This document shows positions 1,857-36,925 of a DNA stretch of 44,313 nt, in pieces (the stretch's first letter is position 1; every line of letters begins with the position of its first letter). The DNA comes from a virus. Lineage: Duplodnaviria > Heunggongvirae > Uroviricota > Caudoviricetes. The notes below the pieces were generated by a model. The model did not search any database. It was not told the origin of the DNA and worked only from the letters and a program-made list of their open reading frames with translations. The stretch lies in IMG/VR virus record IMGVR_UViG_2740892271_000004; one strand, written 5' to 3'. Both the position numbers and the translations under genes were made by a program.

Positions 1857-3944
1857 ATGTTTGCTTCAGTTAAAGAACTGGTTGGATTACCGGGGATGCC
1901 GGGAACGGAGCAAGGCGTTCGCTATTCAATCAGGAAGTATGCAACCAGCGAAACCAGCAGACGCCGCAAGAAAGGCGCTAAAGGTTTTGAATACAGCATT
2001 GACTGTTTACCTGAAGTGACACAGCAGGCATTACGCGAACGTTATGCCCTGCAACTGATGACGCAAAAAGCCGATGAATCACCGGCTCCGGTGGTGACAA
2101 AGGCCAGACGCTCGTCTGCCGTGGTTGATGCGGTGGAGGCATATCGCGGATCACCACAACTGATGGTCGAACGCCTCAATGCCCTGACTGAAAACCAGCG
2201 CCAGGTGGCAGACGCACGCATTGCGATCGTCAGTGAGGTGCTGAAATTCACGCAACAACCCGGTTTCAGCTGCGCTAAAGCTATCCGGTTCCTCGTTAAC
2301 AGCCTGGCACGATCACAACTGGACGAGCGCATTGTGGCAATGGTTGAGACGGCGAACGCCAAAAAGGGAAACAGCCGCGCGTTGAGTGAAATCACGCTGA
2401 AACGCTGGATTGCGGCCTTTAACAAGGCACAGAACGCCGCTGAACGCCTGCTTTTACTGGCACCGGGTAAACGCCAGGAAATAAAAGCCGAAGATATTAA
2501 CTGGCTGCCCGAATTTCTGGCGCAGTATCGCCAGTCAAACGGCCGACCAATGACCGAGGCTTACGAGGATTTTGTTGCTGAATGGCAGCACCGGCACGCT
2601 GATGAGCCTTATATGCTCGATATCATGCCCTCTTATGACACCATTCGCCGCGCAATGAAGAAACTGCCGGAAGTGGTGAAACAAAAAGGCCGGGTAACTG
2701 GCAGTGAATACCGTCAGCTTGAGGGATTCACGCGCCGCGACTGGTCCAGAATGCCGGTGAATTATGTCTGGATTGGTGACGGTCACGGCATGAAGCTGAA
2801 ATGCGCGCACCCGGTTCACGGGCGGCCATTCGCACCGGAAGTGACCTTTGTTATCGACGGTGGCACGCGCTTTGTGGTGGGCTGGAGCCTTGACCTGGCT
2901 GAAAATGTTTTCGCCGTAGCCGGTGCCATACAGCACGGTATTCGCCATCATGGCAAACCGTTTCTGTATTACTCGGATAATGGCTCCGGGGAAACCGCCG
3001 ACGTCCTGGATAAGGAGATTGTGGGGATACTGCCACGACTGGGGATTAATCACCCGACAGGGATTGCCGGTAATCCGCAGGGACGGGGCATTATCGAACG
3101 GCTTAACCGCACATTACCGATGCGCATAGCCCGTAAATACCGCACCTATTTCGGGAAAGGAGCAGATCGCGAGACGTTACGTAAAACCAACCGCGATTTA
3201 CGCTCGGCATTCAGTGCCCTGCAACAGGGCAAACGGCTGAACGCCCGGCAGCAGTCAGCGATGCGTGATTTACCGTCCTGGTCTGAACTGATTGATGCCA
3301 TTCGTGACGGTGTTGAGTGGTACAACAACCGGCCGCACGATGAATTACCCATGAAGCCGAACGGTAAACATTACAGCCCGGCGGAGTTCAGAAAAAAACG
3401 CCTGGCGGAAGAGGACACGGAAATTGAATGGCTGTCCGATGTTGAACTGCGGGATATGTTCCGGCCGATGGTGGAGCGCCCTGTAAGACGCTGTGAAATA
3501 CGCTGGCTGAATAATATTTACTACGCGCCCGAGCTGCGTGACGAGCATGGCCGTAAGGTACTTATCAGCTATGACATTCATGATGCCGAACGAATTACCG
3601 TGCGCCGCCCGGATGGCAGCGTGATTTGCGAGGCGGTATGGGACGGCAATAAACGCGAAGCCTTCCCTGTCAGCGCGGAATACTACAAACAGCAGCAGCG
3701 CCTTAAAGGCATGCGTAAACGCGCAGAGGAAAAAATCCGTGATGCCGAGGATGAGGTTGTCAACGTGCTGGAGCACAAGCCGCAGGAGCCCTGGCTGGAA
3801 AACATATACCGCCCTGTGGGTAATACGGTGACCGTTCAGCAACCGGTCGCTGACGATGAACCTGATGAAGAATACGAGCGTAATTTCCAGCGGGGATTGC
3901 AACTGCTCGAAGCGAAATTAAAAGAAAGTGATCCGCTGGCCTGA
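1857..3944 (+). CDS. A: MuA-like DDE transposase
   Basis: 695 aa, third gene from left end as in Mu; size and position match MuA. Confidence 0.9.
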   Translation: MFASVKELVGLPGMPGTEQGVRYSIRKYATSETSRRRKKGAKGFEYSIDCLPEVTQQALRERYALQLMTQKADESPAPVVTKARRSSAVVDAVEAYRGSPQLMVERLNALTENQRQVADARIAIVSEVLKFTQQPGFSCAKAIRFLVNSLARSQLDERIVAMVETANAKKGNSRALSEITLKRWIAAFNKAQNAAERLLLLAPGKRQEIKAEDINWLPEFLAQYRQSNGRPMTEAYEDFVAEWQHRHADEPYMLDIMPSYDTIRRAMKKLPEVVKQKGRVTGSEYRQLEGFTRRDWSRMPVNYVWIGDGHGMKLKCAHPVHGRPFAPEVTFVIDGGTRFVVGWSLDLAENVFAVAGAIQHGIRHHGKPFLYYSDNGSGETADVLDKEIVGILPRLGINHPTGIAGNPQGRGIIERLNRTLPMRIARKYRTYFGKGADRETLRKTNRDLRSAFSALQQGKRLNARQQSAMRDLPSWSELIDAIRDGVEWYNNRPHDELPMKPNGKHYSPAEFRKKRLAEEDTEIEWLSDVELRDMFRPMVERPVRRCEIRWLNNIYYAPELRDEHGRKVLISYDIHDAERITVRRPDGSVICEAVWDGNKREAFPVSAEYYKQQQRLKGMRKRAEEKIRDAEDEVVNVLEHKPQEPWLENIYRPVGNTVTVQQPVADDEPDEEYERNFQRGLQLLEAKLKESDPLA

Positions 3945-4017: not shown

Positions 4018-4959
4018 GTGAATAATATGACCGATATTAACGATGTAATCAAGACCATTGATGAACTTATTGATGGCGGCGTACTGACGCAGTATGCCAT
4101 CGCCAGAGAGGCGGGAATTTCCGACGGCACATTATCGGCTTTCCGTAAGGGAAAATATAAAGGCGATAACGCTGCTGTGGCTGCTTCCCTGCGCTCCTGG
4201 TATGAGAACTGGAATAAACAAAGCGCACTGCCGGAACCGCCGCAGTTTGTGGAAACTCAGACAGTCCAGGAGCTGCGCGCACTGTTTCAGGCGGTTCGCC
4301 TGATGGGCTGTATTAACGTTATTGTGGGCGTACCGGGTGTGGGTAAAACGGCCACTGCCCGTAATTACTGCCAGGAGCAACCAAACACCTGGATGATCAC
4401 CCTGTCACCCGCGCACTCCAGCGTCACGGAGTGTCTGCTGGAGCTGGCCGATGCGCTGGGGATTGATTACACCCGCGCGAACAAAGGGGCATTATCCCGC
4501 GCCATCCGCCGTCGCCTGATGGGAACGCGTGGACTGGTGATTGTGGATGAGGCGGATCATCTTGGTATTGACGGTCTGGAGCAACTCCGGGCAATTCAGG
4601 ACGCCACGGGGATCGGGATGGTGCTTATTGGTAACCCGCGCGGATTGTTTAAAGGTGGACGCCGCGCCTTTGATGATTTATCGCGCCTGTTCAGCCGTCT
4701 TGCCCGTACAAAACAACTTCGCAAGGCCAAAAAGGCGGATGTGCTGGCCATTGCCATGGCGTGGGGGATCAGTGGTGAGGCCGAGCTGGCCGTCATGCAG
4801 GCTATCGCTGAAAAGCCGGGAGCGTTACGCGTTCTGACACATACGCTTAACCAGGCGTGGCTCACCGCCAGCGGTGAAGGCGCGGCGCTGACAGAAAAAC
4901 ATATTAATGCGGCCTTTAAAGAGGTTTATACCAACCCTGAATTACTCTCACAGGTGTGA
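4018..4959 (+). CDS. B: MuB-like AAA+ ATPase, transposition target-DNA activator
   Basis: 313 aa; Walker A GVPGVGKT and Walker B LVIVDEADHL; follows A. Confidence 0.9.
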   Translation: MNNMTDINDVIKTIDELIDGGVLTQYAIAREAGISDGTLSAFRKGKYKGDNAAVAASLRSWYENWNKQSALPEPPQFVETQTVQELRALFQAVRLMGCINVIVGVPGVGKTATARNYCQEQPNTWMITLSPAHSSVTECLLELADALGIDYTRANKGALSRAIRRRLMGTRGLVIVDEADHLGIDGLEQLRAIQDATGIGMVLIGNPRGLFKGGRRAFDDLSRLFSRLARTKQLRKAKKADVLAIAMAWGISGEAELAVMQAIAEKPGALRVLTHTLNQAWLTASGEGAALTEKHINAAFKEVYTNPELLSQV

Positions 4960-10218: not shown

Positions 10219-10641
10219 ATGGCTGAAACACAGATGAGCATGTTTGGTGACAGCGAACAGCTGCACGCGCTGATTGACCGTCTGGATGATATTCCTGATG
10301 ATGAGCTGAAAAAGAACTGGCCCGGCACGCTGCGGGACCTGGTTGATGTGATCAGTGCTGAACTGCACCGTCAGGGGATTGAACCTGCTCAGGCGGGAAT
10401 GCTTGCCCGTAAGGTTGCAGCCGCACAGGCCGGGTACATGGGCGGGCGTGGTTATTATCTCCCGGTCGGTGAATCCCTTTTCACCGAACTGCGCAATAAT
10501 GAAATTTTTTCCCGCTGGAGCCAGGGCGAAAAAATTGAAACCCTGCGCCGCCACTACCAGATGTCAGAGACGCAGATTTACTCCGTTATCCGCAACCAGC
10601 GTCGCCTGCATCAGGAACGCACGCAGCCACGGCTTTTCTGA
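10219..10641 (+). CDS. mor: Mor/C-family transcriptional activator
   Basis: 140 aa; acidic N-terminus and C-terminal HTH (ETLRRHYQMSETQIYSVIRNQRR) as in Mu Mor/C; only one family member present. Confidence 0.8.
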   Translation: MAETQMSMFGDSEQLHALIDRLDDIPDDELKKNWPGTLRDLVDVISAELHRQGIEPAQAGMLARKVAAAQAGYMGGRGYYLPVGESLFTELRNNEIFSRWSQGEKIETLRRHYQMSETQIYSVIRNQRRLHQERTQPRLF

Positions 10642-10657
10642 TATTCCGCAAATCCTG

Positions 10658-10662
10658 CCCCC
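10658..10662 (+). promoter_or_regulatory. Poly-C motif in candidate late promoter upstream of lys
   Basis: CCTGCCCCCTTTTCC 55 bp upstream of the lys start; similar C-runs upstream of I (18806-18812) and N (25041-25047). Confidence 0.35.
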
Positions 10663-10712
10663 TTTTCCTCACGGTTACGCTGACTCAGAGAACACCATGA
10701 GACAGCGTAACA

Positions 10713-18697: not shown

Positions 18698-18874
18698 TGG
18701 TTTAAGGTATGCAAACGTATTACCTTACCCCCTTCAGGCGCGTGTCGTGATTTTCTAACCTGTATTTAACGGGCTTTAAAATCTGCGTGAAGCGCCTTTC
18801 TCATTCCCCCCCTGTCAGCACTTTCTGAAGTCCCGCAAAACCAGCCCCAAAAATACCCGGCTTATGCTGCCGGT

Positions 18875-20008
18875 ATGAAGACAGAAAATCACCCAAAAGA
18901 CGCAAATCGCCCCTCCGGTTTAGCCGTGCTTTCAGCTTCGCTGACTGCATCCGGCGACGGATGGTGTCAGTTACTGCCAGCCGGTCGGGTAAAGGCCCGT
19001 GACGGTCGCCCGGAAAAACCGACTGAAGGCTGGCTGATTAACGAATCCGCCTGTAACCGGATGAAAGCCGGGCTTTCCGCCCTGCATCAGCCGTTACTGA
19101 TTGATTATGACCATCACTCCGTGAATGCGCAGAAAAACGGATTCAAGGCTATTGCTGCAGGATGGGTTAAGCCGGAAAACATCGAATGGCGTGAGGGTCA
19201 GGGGATTTTCATTAAACCTGAATGGACACCACAGGCACAAAAACATATTGATGACCGTGAATATGCCTATCTGTCTGCATATATGCATTATTTCGCTGAC
19301 ACCGGGGAACCCTACCTGTTGCGCATGGCTTCCCTGACGAATGATCCGGGTATTACGGGTATGAACCCTGTCGCGGCACTCAGTGCTGATGATCTCTATG
19401 TCGTTTCCCCTTCTCAGGAGCAATCCCCCATGAATGAGCAATTACGCCAGTTGCTGACGGCGCTCGGTCTGACCGTGGCTGACGGTGACGAATTTACACC
19501 GGAACTGGGCACGGCGGCGCTGTCTGCCCTTACCGGGATCAAAACCCGTGCGGATGCGCACGACACCCTGAAAACGCAGGTTGCCAGCCTGTCGGCAGAA
19601 CTGGAAACCGCAAAAGGCACACCAACTGGCGGCACTATTGATCTGACGAAATATGTGCCCGTTGAGACGTATAACGCCCTGCGTACCGAATATGCCGCGC
19701 TGTCGGCACAACACGGCAGCACCACGCTGGAGCAGTTGCTGGATAAGGCCGAGTCCGAAGGACGCATTTTCAAAAGCGAACGCGGATACATGGAAGGACT
19801 CGGACAACAGATTGGCGTCGCGGCACTTTCTGCACAGCTTGACGCCCGCCAGCCGGTTGCGGCTCTGACCACTCTTCAGACCGACACCGTAACCGTGCCG
19901 GATAAAAAGACCGCCACCGCTGTGCTGTCGGCTGAAGATATCGCCGCCGCACGTCTGTTGGGTAAAACCGAAGCCGAGTTCCTGAAAATGAAAGAGGAAA
20001 TGCAATAA
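18875..20008 (+). CDS. Head protease/scaffold protein, Mu I (gp32)-like
   Basis: 377 aa; N-terminal protease-like region and C-terminal Ala/Leu-rich scaffold-like region; precedes major capsid gene. Confidence 0.85.
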   Translation: MKTENHPKDANRPSGLAVLSASLTASGDGWCQLLPAGRVKARDGRPEKPTEGWLINESACNRMKAGLSALHQPLLIDYDHHSVNAQKNGFKAIAAGWVKPENIEWREGQGIFIKPEWTPQAQKHIDDREYAYLSAYMHYFADTGEPYLLRMASLTNDPGITGMNPVAALSADDLYVVSPSQEQSPMNEQLRQLLTALGLTVADGDEFTPELGTAALSALTGIKTRADAHDTLKTQVASLSAELETAKGTPTGGTIDLTKYVPVETYNALRTEYAALSAQHGSTTLEQLLDKAESEGRIFKSERGYMEGLGQQIGVAALSAQLDARQPVAALTTLQTDTVTVPDKKTATAVLSAEDIAAARLLGKTEAEFLKMKEEMQ

Positions 20009-31737: not shown

Positions 31738-32288
31738 CCCTGACCCCGCATCAGCGCGCCCTGTTGCAGTTACTGCCTGACGGGCTGGCATGGGACAAGC
31801 GTCCGTCATCCGTACTGGCATCATTATGTCTGGGCCTCAGTCATTCGACAGCGCGTGTATCCTGGACGGGTAAACAGCTGCTTGCCGAGCGTTTCCCTGA
31901 CACGTCGCGCCTGCTGCTGGAAGACTGGGAGCGTTATCTCGGGCTTCCCGAGTGTGATATGGCCGGAGCCACCCTCACGGAGCGACAGCGTTATGCCGGA
32001 AATAAATACCGGATGAAGCCCTCGCTGAACCGTGAATTTTATATCCGGTTTGCGGCGGAGTTTGGTTATCAGATTGACATTCAGCCCTCACCGGATTCGC
32101 AGTGGGTCAGTATTGTCACGATTAACAGTGAAACCGGCTACCGGAATATGAATGTGCTGGATGATATTCTCACGCCGCTGCGTATTTATGAAGGCGGTGC
32201 GCTGGAATGTATTCTGAACCGTTATAAGCCTGCATGGCAGACGTTTATTTACGTTTATGCAAACAGCCATGAAGAGGAGACTATTTAA
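31728..32288 (+). CDS. Tail protein, Mu gp48-like (DUF2313)
   Basis: 186 aa, directly before the tail fibre gene. Confidence 0.7.
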
Positions 32289-33178
32289 TGTTTCATGTTG
32301 ATAATAATTCCGGCGTGGCGAATATGCCTGCGCTGGCACCGGCGCAGAGTAATACCACCACCTGGTTTACCGAAGGTGACGGACAAAAAGGTATCAGCTG
32401 GATTGGTCAGGACTGGCTGAATATTCTCCAGGCCGAACTGCTGAATATTCTGGCTGAAGCCAGTATTCAGCCGGATAAGGCGCAGTTAAACCAGCTTACG
32501 CTGTCCATTAAAGCCATTATCGCTGCGAATGCCTTTTCCCGGAAAAATAACCTGAAAGAAATTGCTGATGCCGGTGCGGAGGCCCAGCGTCTGGCCCGTG
32601 GTTATCTTGGTCTGGGGACGCTTGCCACAAAAAACAGTCTTGGTCCCGCTGACGTTAATGCCCTGGCGAAGGATCAGAATCTCGCCGACCTGGAGAATAA
32701 GGGAACCGCCCGTAATAATCTGGATGTTTACAGCAAAAGCGAAGGTGATAACCGTTACCTGCGCAGGGAGCAGAACGGCGCAGACATTCCGGATAAAGGG
32801 GCTTTTATCGATAACGTCGGTTTACGGGAAACGGTAAACAGGGCGGCGAATGCTCTGCCATCGGACGGCACCGCCGTTGCCGCGAATAGACTCGCCACCC
32901 CAAGAAATATTAATGGGGTTCCCTTTGACGGGACGCAGGACATAAACATCACTTCTGGTATAACACAGCAGGATGCGGATTCCCGATATATCCAGGATAT
33001 CAGGCTGGGAGCAGAGAACAGGCAGGTAATGTACGGTGGGGCATATTACTCTGCGTACGGTAATGTTATGGCAGGCCTGCAGATTGACAGTAAAGTTGAT
33101 GCTTCAAACGATTTTATAGCATTCAGACCCCTGCAAAAATTAGTCGGAGGTACATGGATTACGGTATCTCAGTTATAA
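32288..33178 (+). CDS. S: Tail fibre protein S (constant N-terminal part + currently joined variable C-terminal part)
   Basis: 296 aa; gix crossover site lies inside the gene at 32805-32830. Confidence 0.85.
32805..32830 (+). promoter_or_regulatory. gix-like recombination site (left) for Gin invertase
   Basis: TTATCGATAACGTCGGTTTACGGGAA is close to recalled Mu gix (TTATCCAAAACCTCGGTTTACAGGAA); lies in about 120-bp inverted repeat 32818-32940 / 34012-34134. Confidence 0.75.
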
Positions 33179-33229
33179 ATAGTCAGTAAATAATATATTT
33201 TAAAACAGATTTATTTCCAGGAGGATTTT

Positions 33230-33751
33230 ATGGAACTAAAAAATATAACCCGTTATTATCCTGAAAATATGCCATATGGTAATAATGTTCAGTATTTCCA
33301 GAGTGAAGATGGTAAGGATTTCTACGAATCCCTGCCATTATTCACCAAAAAATATAAACTTTGCATAACACCTGACAGCGGCGTTATCTGCTCAATATCA
33401 CAGGACGCCTCGGCGCTGTATCCTGCGGGGTTTTCTGTGGTTGAGGTCGATGAACTCCCTGAAGGCACGGATATTTCAGGAAACTGGAAGTTTGATAATG
33501 GCATAATCTCCCGTATTCCGGTTAACTACGCAAGAAAACTGGAAGCAATGCGCCAGTCATATCTTAATCAGGCATATGAAAAAATTAATGACTGGAGAAC
33601 GGAGCTACAACTGGGCACCATCAGCGATGAAGACAGAGCAGCACTTACCCAATGGATGGCATACATCAGTCAGGTGAAGAAAATGGAACTACCCGCCATT
33701 AAAACAGAAGCTGAATTTAACGCCATTAAATGGCCTGAGCAGCCACAGTAA
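33230..33751 (+). CDS. U: Tail fibre assembly protein U
   Basis: 173 aa, AT-rich, follows S. Confidence 0.8.
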   Translation: MELKNITRYYPENMPYGNNVQYFQSEDGKDFYESLPLFTKKYKLCITPDSGVICSISQDASALYPAGFSVVEVDELPEGTDISGNWKFDNGIISRIPVNYARKLEAMRQSYLNQAYEKINDWRTELQLGTISDEDRAALTQWMAYISQVKKMELPAIKTEAEFNAIKWPEQPQ

Positions 33752-33755
33752 TAAA

Positions 33756-33775
33756 GAAGGCCGGAAGGCCTTCTG
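33756..33775. terminator. Hairpin between convergent U and S' segment
   Basis: AGAAGGCC-GGAA-GGCCTTCT perfect 8-bp stem. Confidence 0.45.
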
Positions 33776-33782
33776 AATATCA

Positions 33783-34121
33783 TTATATACTTGCAGCCGT
33801 CACCCATGCTCCATTTAACAGATACTGCAACGGCCGGTAATACACGCCGCCGACGTTATCTGCCGTATTCTTACCGACATCCTGTACTTTAATTCCGGTA
33901 AGAACATTGCCGCCCCCCAGATTCAGATCCCAGCTTTCCCATGTTCCGGGCATATGTGCGGTCACCGACCCCAGTCTTATGGCGGTTACTGTTCCTGATG
34001 AGATAGTGATATCCTGCGTCCCGTCAAAGGGAACACCATTAATTGTGTGGGCATTTGCCAGCCTGTTCGCGGCAACGGCGGTGCCGTCCGATGGCAGGGC
34101 ATTCGCCGCCCTGTTTACCGT
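33783..34121 (-). CDS. Alternative tail fibre C-terminal segment S'v (no own start; would be fused to S after inversion)
   Basis: Minus-strand frame open from the right gix site to stop at 33780-33782; C-terminus YYRPLQYLLNGAWVTAASI parallels S C-terminus [18 protein letters not shown]. Confidence 0.65.
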   Translation of the reverse strand, partial: TVNRAANALPSDGTAVAANRLANAHTINGVPFDGTQDITISSGTVTAIRLGSVTAHMPGTWESWDLNLGGGNVLTGIKVQDVGKNTADNVGGVYYRPLQYLLNGAWVTAASI

Positions 34122-34147
34122 TTCCCGTAAACCGAGGTTTTCAGGAA
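34122..34147 (+). promoter_or_regulatory. gix-like recombination site (right)
   Basis: TTCCCGTAAACCGAGGTTTTCAGGAA versus recalled Mu gix TTCCTGTAAACCGAGGTTTTGGATAA. Confidence 0.75.
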
Positions 34148-34212: not shown

Positions 34213-34785
34213 ATGCTGATTGGGTATATCAGGGTGTCAACAAATGACCAGAATACGGCGCTACAAAGAAATGCGCTGGAATGTGCAGGATGTGAGCTGT
34301 TTTTCGAAGACAGAATAAGCGGTAAGACAAGGGAGCGTCCCGGACTTAAACGCGCATTAAAGCGACTCCGGCCAGGGGATACCCTGCTGGTCTGGAAACT
34401 GGATCGCCTTGGACGCAGTATGCAGCACCTTGTCCTTTTAACAGAAGAACTCCGGCAACGCGGCGTTAACTTCCGCAGCATTACGGACAATATTGATACA
34501 TCCACTCCCATGGGACGTTTCTTTTTCCATATAATGGGCGCGCTGGCGGAAATGGAGCGGGAACTCATTATTGAACGTACACGCGCGGGTCTTGCTGCTG
34601 CCCGTGCTCAGGGGCGTCATGGCGGCAGACCTCAGAAACTGACAGAGAAAGAGCGGGAGCAAATCGCCCGTTTGCTGGCTAATGGCGAGTCCCGTAAACA
34701 AATCGCACTGATATTTGATATTGGCCTTTCCACCCTTTATCGTTATTTTCCTGCCTCACCAGCTCCGTCACCAAAAGTACCGTGA
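34213..34785 (+). CDS. gin: Gin/Pin/Hin-family serine DNA invertase
   Basis: 190 aa; MLIGYIRVSTNDQNTALQRNAL...WKLDRLGRSMQHL...FFFHIMGALAEMERELIIERT near-identical in pattern to Gin/Pin; C-terminal HTH. Confidence 0.95.
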   Translation: MLIGYIRVSTNDQNTALQRNALECAGCELFFEDRISGKTRERPGLKRALKRLRPGDTLLVWKLDRLGRSMQHLVLLTEELRQRGVNFRSITDNIDTSTPMGRFFFHIMGALAEMERELIIERTRAGLAAARAQGRHGGRPQKLTEKEREQIARLLANGESRKQIALIFDIGLSTLYRYFPASPAPSPKVP

Positions 34786-34870
34786 CGCTTTTTTGAATTT
34801 CCGCAAAACACATATTTTTCAGCGGTCGCTATTCTGACTCTGTTTAATTCAGAAACAGGCAGAAAAGACG

Positions 34871-36925
34871 ATGTCAGACTCCAAGTGGAAAATGCTCTCC
34901 GCCATGCCCGGAGAGTTTTCAGTCAAGGTTGCCGGTGGCACGGTGGCATTTATTGAAAGCCCTTTCCGCCCTTCGGGTAATAAAGGGGGGATCACCTTCG
35001 CAGACTGCGTGATCCGCTTCAGCACGAAAGAGCCATTATGGGTAATGCCGGTATCCGGTAATCCCAGTGCAGAAATCACCAGTTCAGGCGTGACTGGCAT
35101 CATTCCAATCACATCTGACGTGGCCGGAACGCTCACGCCCTCCGACTGGAATGCACCGGATAACGCCGGGCCTTCCGGTAGCACGAATGGCAGCAGTTCA
35201 GAGCCGGAATATTACTTTGTTGTCATTCTCGCGGGTCAGTCAAATGGCATGGCCTACGGCGAGGGGCTGCCGTTACCGGATTCGTTTGACCGCCCGGACC
35301 CACGCATTAAGCAACTGGCACGCCGCAGTACGGTAACGCCCAACGGTACGTCGTGTACATACAACGACATCATTCCGGCAGACCACTGCCTGCATGATGT
35401 TCAGGATATGAGCGGGATAAACCACCCGAAAGCTGATCTGGCAAAAGGCCAGTACGGGACTGTCGGTCAGGGGTTGCATATTGCCAAAAAACTGCTTCCC
35501 TATATCCCACAGAATGCCGGGATACTTCTGGTGCCCTGTTGTCGTGGCGGGTCAGCATTCACCACTGGAGCCGACGGCTCATTCAGTGAGGCCAGCGGTG
35601 CTTCCGCTGATTCTTCACGCTGGGGGGCCGGTAAACCTCTGTATCAGGACCTGGTAAGCCGCACCAAAGTCGCGCTGGCGAAAAACCCGAAAAACAAACT
35701 TCTGGCTGTGGTCTGGATGCAGGGAGAGGCAGACCTTGCCTCAGGAAGCCAGCAGCATAATAGTTTATTCACGGCCATGGTTCAGCAGTTCAGAACTGAC
35801 CTGGCTCCGCTTGCTGCGCAGTGCGTGAGTGGAAATGCCACCACGGTGCCGTGGATTTGCGGTGATACCACGTATTACTGGAAAAACGCTGGCACCGATA
35901 AATATGAGGCAGTATACGGTGGCTACAAAGGCAAGGAAGCACAGAAAATTTTCTTTGTACCGTTCCTGACGGATGAGAATGGACAGAGCACGCCAACGAA
36001 TGCTCCGGCGGAAGACCCGGATATTGTGGCTGTCGGGTATTACGGTGCAGCATCCCGAACCCAGGGCAGTTTTGTTTCGACACAGCGTGACAGCCATTTC
36101 AGCTCATGGGCACGCAGGGGCGTCATTTCAGACCGTCTGGCCTCAGCTATTATGCTCCATGCAGGGCGCACGGCTGAACTGATGCGTGGGCAGACCGTGA
36201 CACCACCGGATGAGAAGCCGTCACCTGATACACCATCAAAACCGTCCACGCCACCCGCAGACACCACGACGATGAGTACGCTATTTGCTTACCGGGCATC
36301 TGAGTCTGAAGGACGGTTGACACCACAGGGTTGGGCTGCCGGAGGTGGCAAGGCTCAAATCGTGGATGATGCCGGAGCCAGCGGGGGTAAGGCAATGAAA
36401 CTGACCAAGGAAACAGGAAGAGCCCCCTGGTACCTTGAGCATGATGCTGGTAATGGTGCGGACCTGCTGGGTAAAGGTGGTCTTGTCAGTTGTCGTTTTA
36501 AACTCGATGGCGCGCTTACGGCTAATCAGTACGCACTGGCGCTGTACTGGCCGGTTTCTGCCCTGCCGCAAGGGGTTACTCTGGAAGGAAATGCCGGTCA
36601 TAACCTGCTGGCATCGTTCTACGTACAGAGCGATGCCACAGACCTTAACGTGATGTATCACAAAGGAAACACGGCGCAGAACACGAAGCTGGGGTCATTC
36701 GGCGCATTTAATAACGAATGGCATACGCTGGGCTTCCGTTTTGCCGGTAACAACAGTATTGAGGTGACGCCGGTCATTGATGGTAAGGACGGGACACCAT
36801 TCATGCTGTCGCAGTCTCCGGTCGGCACGTTTACGGCAGACAAGTTGCGCGTGACCGATATCACTAAAAATGCGACTTACCCGGTACTGATTGACAGTAT
36901 CGTGGTGGAAGTGAATAACGCGTAA
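34871..36925 (+). CDS. SASA/SGNH-family carbohydrate O-acetylesterase (NanS-like) with C-terminal putative carbohydrate-binding domain; prophage cargo gene
   Basis: 684 aa; GQSNGMAYGEG (GQSN catalytic-serine motif) and VVWMQGEADL motif; lies between gin and com, where Mu has no gene. Confidence 0.7.
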   Translation: MSDSKWKMLSAMPGEFSVKVAGGTVAFIESPFRPSGNKGGITFADCVIRFSTKEPLWVMPVSGNPSAEITSSGVTGIIPITSDVAGTLTPSDWNAPDNAGPSGSTNGSSSEPEYYFVVILAGQSNGMAYGEGLPLPDSFDRPDPRIKQLARRSTVTPNGTSCTYNDIIPADHCLHDVQDMSGINHPKADLAKGQYGTVGQGLHIAKKLLPYIPQNAGILLVPCCRGGSAFTTGADGSFSEASGASADSSRWGAGKPLYQDLVSRTKVALAKNPKNKLLAVVWMQGEADLASGSQQHNSLFTAMVQQFRTDLAPLAAQCVSGNATTVPWICGDTTYYWKNAGTDKYEAVYGGYKGKEAQKIFFVPFLTDENGQSTPTNAPAEDPDIVAVGYYGAASRTQGSFVSTQRDSHFSSWARRGVISDRLASAIMLHAGRTAELMRGQTVTPPDEKPSPDTPSKPSTPPADTTTMSTLFAYRASESEGRLTPQGWAAGGGKAQIVDDAGASGGKAMKLTKETGRAPWYLEHDAGNGADLLGKGGLVSCRFKLDGALTANQYALALYWPVSALPQGVTLEGNAGHNLLASFYVQSDATDLNVMYHKGNTAQNTKLGSFGAFNNEWHTLGFRFAGNNSIEVTPVIDGKDGTPFMLSQSPVGTFTADKLRVTDITKNATYPVLIDSIVVEVNNA

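Follow-up and report, generated by a model that had tools for sequence, protein, structure and literature searches.

The virus record IMGVR_UViG_2740892271_000004 of IMG/VR (Caudoviricetes) comprises 44,313 nt of DNA, a stretch that is termed the window here and that represents a Mu-like prophage of E. coli. Within its tail fibre gene, S, lies the left boundary of a 1.34-kb "mini-G" segment that almost certainly functions as an active inversion switch, in which the DNA invertase Gin acts at a pair of gix sites. Invertible fibre segments are textbook examples of programmed host-range variation, and in the accepted layout each alternative fibre tip is provided with its own chaperone, a tail fibre assembly (Tfa) protein. 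The mini-G family breaks this rule because its segments hold two alternative tips and only one tfa gene, U. Having one tfa sets these segments truly apart from the usual arrangement, and the exception appears to be stable because the tip that lacks a tfa partner is under strong selection. No such layout was described in the literature searched, and mini-G is best regarded as a variant of the G system of Mu.

Architecture of the mini-G segment

The segment, the fibre gene that it interrupts, and the adjoining invertase gene are composed of the following parts (window coordinates).

32288..33178, plus strand: S, the form of the tail fibre gene that is expressed in the window's orientation, an open reading frame (ORF) of 296 aa assigned to PHROG 1833 (tail fiber protein)
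32805..32830, plus strand: left gix, inside S, TTATCGATAACGTCGGTTTACGGGAA, identical to Mu gix at 22 of 26 positions, core TC at 32817-32818
32810..32958, unstranded: left repeat arm, which encodes a conserved 40-residue peptide
32959..33178, plus strand: Sv, the proximal tip (class A), co-directional with U and homologous to the Mu S tip domain
33230..33751, plus strand: U, the only Tfa gene, 173 aa, Pfam Caudo_TAP PF02413 (E=4.8e-19)
33783..34134, minus strand: S'v, the silent alternative fibre C-terminus (class-B tip), in an open frame from 34166 to 33783 that joins the constant part of S after inversion to make the 293-aa S'
33994..34142, unstranded: right repeat arm, paired with the left arm as an inverted repeat
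34122..34147, minus strand: right gix, 65 nt upstream of the gin ATG, TTCCTGAAAACCTCGGTTTACGGGAA (other strand), identical to Mu gix at 21 of 26 positions, core TC at 34134-34135
34213..34785, plus strand: gin, intact, encoding a serine DNA invertase of 190 aa, Resolvase PF00239 (E=1.6e-51) and HTH_7 PF02796 (E=4.9e-15)

An initial annotation of this DNA had recognized two Mu-like gix sites in inverted orientation, one in S and one upstream of gin, and comparison with the Mu gix reference TTATCCAAAACCTCGGTTTACAGGAA, taken from the Mu genome (NC_000929), confirms both. Each site carries a central TC, as is required for exchange in inverted orientation, and the bases just inside the site are identical to those of Mu (ACGGTAAA). 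When the window was searched with a 26-nt Mu probe consisting of the inner half-site and its flank, and up to three mismatches were permitted, exactly two places were matched. These are the gix sites, and the same search returned nothing in 100 shuffles.

The same annotation had placed the gix sites inside inverted repeats of about 120 bp. The repeats are real, but both their length and the position of the sites need correction. A first pair of arms (32810-32895 and 34057-34142) spans 86 nt and is 93% complementary, and it is continued by a second pair (32909-32958 and 33994-34043) of 50 nt that is 84% complementary, so that the whole repeat measures about 150 bp. The gix sites are located at the outer ends of the repeats and enclose 1.34 kb. 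Within this interval, the variable end of S, U, and the oppositely oriented alternative C-terminus of S were all mapped as originally claimed.

The Gin protein of the window is 72% identical to Mu Gin. It carries the motif MLIGYIRVSTNDQ, and its RVST motif holds Ser9. In Mu, inversion involves a cis-acting recombinational enhancer that is bound by Fis and lies within the 5' portion of the invertase gene. Over its first 240 nt, the gin gene of the window is 71% identical to its Mu counterpart, and one match to a degenerate Fis consensus is conserved at nt 71-85 in both genes.

Both orientations are present in E. coli genomes

The flipped form of the segment was built in silico by exchange at the TC cores, and a 2,498-nt region in each of the two orientations was then compared with 5,426 complete E. 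coli genomes. What such a comparison reveals is variation between isolates, as distinct from variation within one culture. At least 80% of the region was covered in the window's orientation in 6 genomes and in the flipped orientation in 20 genomes. Among the latter, 18 are 98.7-100% identical to the construct, including five that are 100.0% identical over its full length. In the flipped genomes, RefSeq annotates the fusion of the constant part of S (Sc) with S'v as a 293-aa "phage tail protein" and places tfa on the opposite strand, which is the arrangement that had been anticipated for the inverted state. A further scenario raised at the outset, in which only one orientation would ever be seen beside an inactive gin, fails because complete E. 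coli genomes hold both orientations (6 versus 20) and gin is intact.

The position of the crossover can also be bounded. Differences between the repeat arms are seen immediately beyond the core and then at 32854, and the in silico construct agrees exactly with the flipped genomes. The crossover therefore falls within 32817-32853, an interval that starts at the gix core, which is consistent with site-specific exchange and less so with recombination anywhere along the repeat.

Related loci give a similar picture. Where both tips could be typed, the loci divide 7 to 13 between the two orientations, and some genomes carry two copies in opposite orientations. Moreover, at least 10 contigs assembled from short reads break off within the repeat. 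Such breaks are expected if a culture contains mixed orientations, although the repeat alone can also interrupt assembly. In E. coli DLI.5a (L003, L076), there are two internally deleted copies of this prophage region whose segments are oppositely oriented and whose gin genes are both annotated as frameshifted. Either inversion predated the frameshift in this strain, or another invertase of the Pin/Gin family acts in trans.

A short fibre with two alternative tips

The constant part of the fibre, Sc, corresponds to S residues 1 to ~176 (32288-32816) and lies outside the segment. A profile of the fibre family matches the Mu tail fibre S (5yvq_A) with E=1.4e-66 in two blocks, in which residues 1-196 align with Mu S 1-189 and the tip, residues 229-298, aligns with Mu S 435-503. 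The fibre is therefore equivalent to Mu S without its shaft of ~240 residues, and retains only Mu S 1-190 plus the last ~70 residues. As a naturally minimised Mu S that consists of a baseplate anchor and a tip, it offers a convenient scaffold for structural and engineering work.

The tips of the family, again as a profile, also match the tip of Mu S', and both alternative ends are versions of a small C-terminal knob, which in Mu is the domain bound by Tfa. Tips A and B of the window are 39% identical, which is the same divergence as that between the tips of Mu S and S'. Across related loci the tips fall into five classes, of which three (A, C, and E) invariably point the same way as U and two (B and D) always converge on it. 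The two convergent classes share an insertion, ADN[VI]GGVYY, that is absent from A, C, and E.

Tips of classes B and D are intact in every locus (~30 loci). Their synonymous divergence (dS) is saturated or nearly so, and the nonsynonymous divergence (dN) is small: for class B, dS is ~1.4 and dN ~0.14, and for class D, dS is >1 and dN 0.12-0.17. A dN this low despite saturated dS argues that these tips have been kept functional for a long time in the convergent position. Thus, the tip without a tfa of its own is no relic.

One relative invites a caveat about annotation. In E. coli O157:H7 ECP19-198 (L005, 3001-3900), tblastn aligns a full-length S (residues 1-292, 83% identity), whereas RefSeq annotates only a 68-aa "tail fiber protein." The S gene of this locus is either disrupted or under-annotated.

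A single tfa gene in every related locus

U is recognizable as a relative of Mu U (5yvq_B; E=4.2e-16 over residues 18-153) and matches PHROG 136 with E=4.7e-56. The claim that it is the only tfa gene of the segment withstood every comparison made. A tblastn search with U against the six frames of the 44-kb window returned no other match better than E=0.4, RefSeq annotates one tail fiber assembly protein in identical loci, and a second tfa is absent from all related mini-G loci (~35 loci), each of which has exactly one U. The suspicion that a second tfa-like ORF had simply been missed is therefore not borne out.

The one-tfa layout is conserved over the five tip classes and over two clades of U, which are ~85-100% and ~61% identical to the U protein of the window. 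These clades are paired with several tip classes on both sides of the segment; for example, class E occurs with U3 in L019, and class D occurs with both U2 and U3. Such free mixing argues that U is not tip-specific. Co-variation between U type and tip class was also considered as a guide to the partner of U, but none was seen on either side, so U cannot be assigned to one tip by this means.

How one Tfa might serve two fibres

By the layout of the genes, late transcription is predicted to reach the segment from the left by way of Sc. With the segment lying as in the window, it reads Sc with tip A and then U. Once Gin has exchanged the TC cores, transcription instead reads Sc with tip B (S', 293 aa) and stops at a hairpin, leaving U and tip A on the other strand. 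In the mechanism that we favour, the single U would act as a generalist chaperone for both tips. If one U is to serve both tips, then it must be expressed in either orientation, and we propose that it could be expressed whichever way the segment lies from signals of its own in the spacer and the tip end that travel with U, among them a candidate element at 33131-33165. We consider the chance about even that one U serves both fibres and is expressed independently of orientation, a judgment drawn from sequence comparisons.

That the convergent tips should need Tfa is suggested by relatives that do not invert. L063 and L059, which are Mu-like contigs from IMG/VR, share the short fibre type with mini-G. 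They have a class-D-like tip (62% identical, with the motif TADNIGGVYY) and, 14 nt downstream on the same strand, a tfa of the U family (61% identical). Unlike mini-G, they have no second tip, gix, or invertase, and their tfa follows the tip in ordinary operon order. Thus, the tip class that stands without a tfa in mini-G is an ordinary partner of U-type chaperones elsewhere, and because this partnership appears to be a natural one, U is probably supplied in both states. The initial annotation had implied that the alternative fibre is expressed without Tfa. The layout behind that suggestion holds, but the consequence drawn from it is not the most likely one, given that a U-type Tfa partners this class of tip in other phages.

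Homology points in the same direction. Tips of classes B and D align with residues 435-503 of the Mu S tip, the structure of which was solved together with U (5YVQ), and with the tip of Mu S', and to judge from these alignments they should need Tfa. In PMC9608196, Tfa proteins are described as having a variable N-domain for fibre binding and a conserved C-domain. The same paper, citing North et al. (2019), states that Mu Tfa binds the distal fibre through the variable N-domain, stays on the virion, and aids receptor recognition.

Three features within the segment bear on the expression of U.

33131..33165, plus strand: candidate late promoter for U, CTGCAAA-N22-TACGGT, inside the segment and 65 nt upstream of the U ATG; to be taken as a lead only
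33179..33229, plus strand: untranslated spacer of 51 nt from the Sv stop to the U start, ending in the ribosome-binding sequence AGGAGG
33755..33774, unstranded: GC-rich hairpin between the convergent stops of U and S'v, terminator-like for transcripts from the S'v side; also flagged in L004

The spacer between tip and U measures 51, ~94, or 124 nt depending on the type of segment, compared with 2 nt in Mu and 14 nt in L063, a difference that hints at independent expression of U. Where the spacer is 124 nt long, in class-E segments, it includes a conserved hairpin, TCTGAAAT-ATGCGTT-ATTTCAGA (L006 at ~4480-4560, minus strand; also L007, L038, L039, and the locked loci described below). The 3' 60 nt of this spacer show ~11% divergence and are thus more conserved than the synonymous sites of the adjacent U gene (dS ~0.4).

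The candidate promoter was recognized through a late-promoter signature, CCGCAAA-N22-23-TAnnnT, which occurs three times in the window, always on the plus strand, versus 0.18 occurrences expected. The strict sites (10646-10681, 18833-18868, and 34801-34835, plus strand) each immediately precede a likely late transcription unit, namely lys, the gene at 18875, and a DUF6645 gene, respectively, and the first two share the sequence GCCCC. These three sites are probably promoters that depend on the C-type activator. When the strict signature is relaxed by one base, only the site at 33131-33165 is added in the window. The chance of any one-mismatch match in the 150-nt target before U was estimated at ~0.007.

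A lineage locked in the flipped state provides another hint that U is expressed independently. One deletion junction is common to eight viral contigs (L004, L010-L012, L014, L020, L027, L030) and to E. coli M3, and the extent of BLAST matches makes it likely that E. coli M1 and M18 have the same deletion. This event took out ~1 kb while the segment was flipped, and the lost DNA comprised the greater part of the proximal tip, the right gix, and gin from codon 1 to ~161. The locked loci (L004, 4001-5750) retain ~60 nt from the end of the former tip ("TAYYR...") and ~28 codons at the 3' end of gin, with the fibre gene and U facing each other (fibre -> <- U). The lineage has diversified and carries both B and D tips, and its antisense 173-aa U is intact in every member, with dN/dS values of 0.10-0.23.

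Several observations count against a U that serves both tips in either orientation. The late-promoter motif was relaxed after the site at 33131-33165 had already been seen, and this site is located within coding sequence and is without the GCCCC of the lys and 18875 promoters. Counterparts with no more than one mismatch are absent from class-C and class-E segments, so that the candidate is confined to class-A loci, and sigma-70 promoter scans upstream of U in four lineages revealed nothing above shuffled expectation. Furthermore, no mini-G locus has a class-B or class-D tip in the same direction as U, which could mean that these tips do not use U. Finally, dS in U of the locked lineage reaches 0.43, about ten times the divergence of the adjacent junction (~4%). 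The U alleles of this lineage were therefore probably imported by recombination, which confounds the signal of selection on U.

For the same reason, dN/dS of U in the locked lineage was rejected as a decisive test of antisense expression. An asymmetry of the hairpin that might shield U from antisense transcription was likewise dropped as an argument, because O157-type segments have the T-tract on the other side.

Alternative functions for the inversion

The most serious competitor to a shared, always available U is one in which U toggles with the segment. According to this possible but rather doubtful reading, U would be made only in the window's orientation, and S' with tip B would be assembled without any phage-encoded Tfa. 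The fibre might fold unaided, or the Tfa of another resident prophage might help in trans, and the two states would then yield a Tfa-assisted, possibly capped fibre and an uncapped one. After inversion, U does lie on the non-transcribed strand, and no convincing promoter was found upstream of it. The tips of classes B and D, which are always convergent, also carry the ADN[VI]GGVYY insertion that the other classes lack. Because Mu Tfa is found on the virion and contributes to receptor recognition (PMC9608196, citing North et al. 2019), its presence or absence could affect host range. Against these points, the same tip class is tightly coupled to a U-type tfa in the non-invertible relatives, the tips have the same fold as the Mu S tip with bound Tfa, and U has remained intact in the lineage locked in the flipped state. 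A supply of Tfa in trans would also hinge on whichever prophages each new host happens to have. The fuller version of this idea, in which inversion changes the fused tip and the production of Tfa together and the phage switches back and forth from a fibre capped by Tfa to a bare one that has the same fold and needs no chaperone, appears slightly less probable still.

It is improbable that the flipped state is simply a nonproductive OFF state, in which case mini-G would be a decayed Mu-type segment that has lost U', and flipped phages would be left without functional fibres. A single tfa does look like a loss when set beside Mu and three P2-like phages, all of which have two tightly coupled tfa genes, and several relatives have broken S or gin genes. 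Yet decay is difficult to reconcile with distal tips that are intact in ~30 loci and show strong purifying selection over saturated synonymous divergence, or with a one-tfa layout that was kept across five tip classes and two U clades. Nor does decay fit a lineage that is fixed in the flipped orientation and yet has survived and branched out, with tips of both class B and class D. We give very little credence to another proposal, that inversion serves the host in lysogens by making alternative fibre fragments that block other phages. Its precedent is the P segment of e14, which is inverted by PinQ to make StfE2, a product that blocks adsorption of phage T2 (PMC12529663). However, the fibre gene of the window belongs to a late operon that is complete, in a Mu-like prophage that appears intact and extends from repressor and transposase to mom, and a promoter active in the lysogen is not evident.

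The choice between the two leading explanations has consequences beyond this prophage. If one Tfa with its own promoter in the segment serves diverged tips, then mini-G would inform the specificity of Tfa proteins and help in fibre engineering. If U toggles, then the segment would be a two-layer host-range switch and would provide a natural example of a Mu-type tip that folds without Tfa.

Comparison with other invertible fibre regions

The G segment of Mu (Gin; S-U / U'-S', 3 kb) is the closest known relative. In addition to the similarity of gix sites (21-22 of 26 positions, with TC cores) and of Gin, both systems have gin immediately to the right of the segment, the constant fibre N-terminus outside it, and the alternative fibre C-termini inside it on opposite strands. 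The fibre N-terminus and tip domain are homologous to those of Mu S and S', and U is homologous to Mu U. The differences concern size and economy. Mini-G spans 1.34 kb rather than 3 kb and encodes a fibre of 296 rather than 504 aa. It has one tfa instead of U and U', each of which begins 2 nt from the end of its own fibre gene, and its spacer before U is 51-124 nt compared with 2 nt in Mu. A DUF6645/SASA gene also lies between gin and com/mom.

Other phages have invertible fibre regions as well, including P1 and P7 with Cin and e14 with Pin. In the P2-like phages pro483, 500465-1, and P88_4B11, an invertase of the Gin family adjoins a segment that swaps the 3' end of the fibre gene. These three differ from mini-G in that every alternative tip is paired with a neighbouring tfa of its own (fibre -> tfa -> <- tfa <- tip, then invertase).

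Two further candidates for comparison were set aside. Erwinia phage ENT90 initially resembled a second one-tfa case, but it has two tfa genes and several repeats and is therefore a multi-inversion region. In this phage (L069/L071, across the start of the record), a fibre gene is followed by an antisense tfa, and a second tfa, a 115-aa inverted tip fragment, and an invertase are found further on. There are at least two sets of inverted repeats, and the record appears to have captured the region while an antisense tfa stood opposite the expressed fibre gene. The "Mu prophage" inversion of enteropathogenic E. coli (EPEC) E2348/69, which was shown experimentally (PMC4272514), involves 1.9 kb and repeats of the e14/Pin type, and thus belongs to a different family.

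Prophage setting and distribution

The Mu-like character of the window is evident from a repressor gene (893-1438), a MuA-type transposase gene (1857-3944), a late activator gene of the Mor/C family (10219-10641), and mom (38219-39151). Toward the right end, a gp48-like baseplate gene is followed by S, U, a minus-strand frame that lacks a start codon (34166 to 33783), and gin.

Matches of some level to the segment family were present in 236 of the 5,426 complete E. coli genomes, including those of O157:H7 strains and Mu-like phages inserted in Shiga toxin (Stx) phages. Scans of species-representative genomes with the S alignment and with the U alignment gave no confirmed relative, so that statements on hosts extend only to E. 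coli and Shigella. When the class-B tip was searched against a protein database, the matches were limited to 27 fragments from E. coli and Shigella, most of them partial, and added no further genomic context. No Rfam family matched anywhere in the window.

Between gin and com/mom, where Mu has nothing at the same place, the window encodes a 684-aa protein (34871-36925, plus strand) with a sialate-O-acetylesterase-like (SASA) domain and a DUF6645 domain, assigned to PHROG 143 (unknown function). This gene is found downstream from gin in all relatives inspected, and in the window it is preceded by one of the late-promoter signatures (34801-34835). Its domain content suggests that the protein could be a virion-associated or surface-modifying esterase.

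Beyond mom (39370-44015), there is a fragment of an IS66 transposase gene, a truncated lambdoid side-tail-fibre gene (phage_tail_N), and a DUF4376 fibre-like ORF, and the same interval contains, on the minus strand, a gene for a type III effector of the leucine-rich repeat (LRR) plus NEL E3-ligase kind. This content indicates that the Mu-like prophage resides in or beside another, degraded prophage. The setting resembles that of Stx phages annotated as carrying an "inserted Mu-like phage" (LC727895, LC727881).

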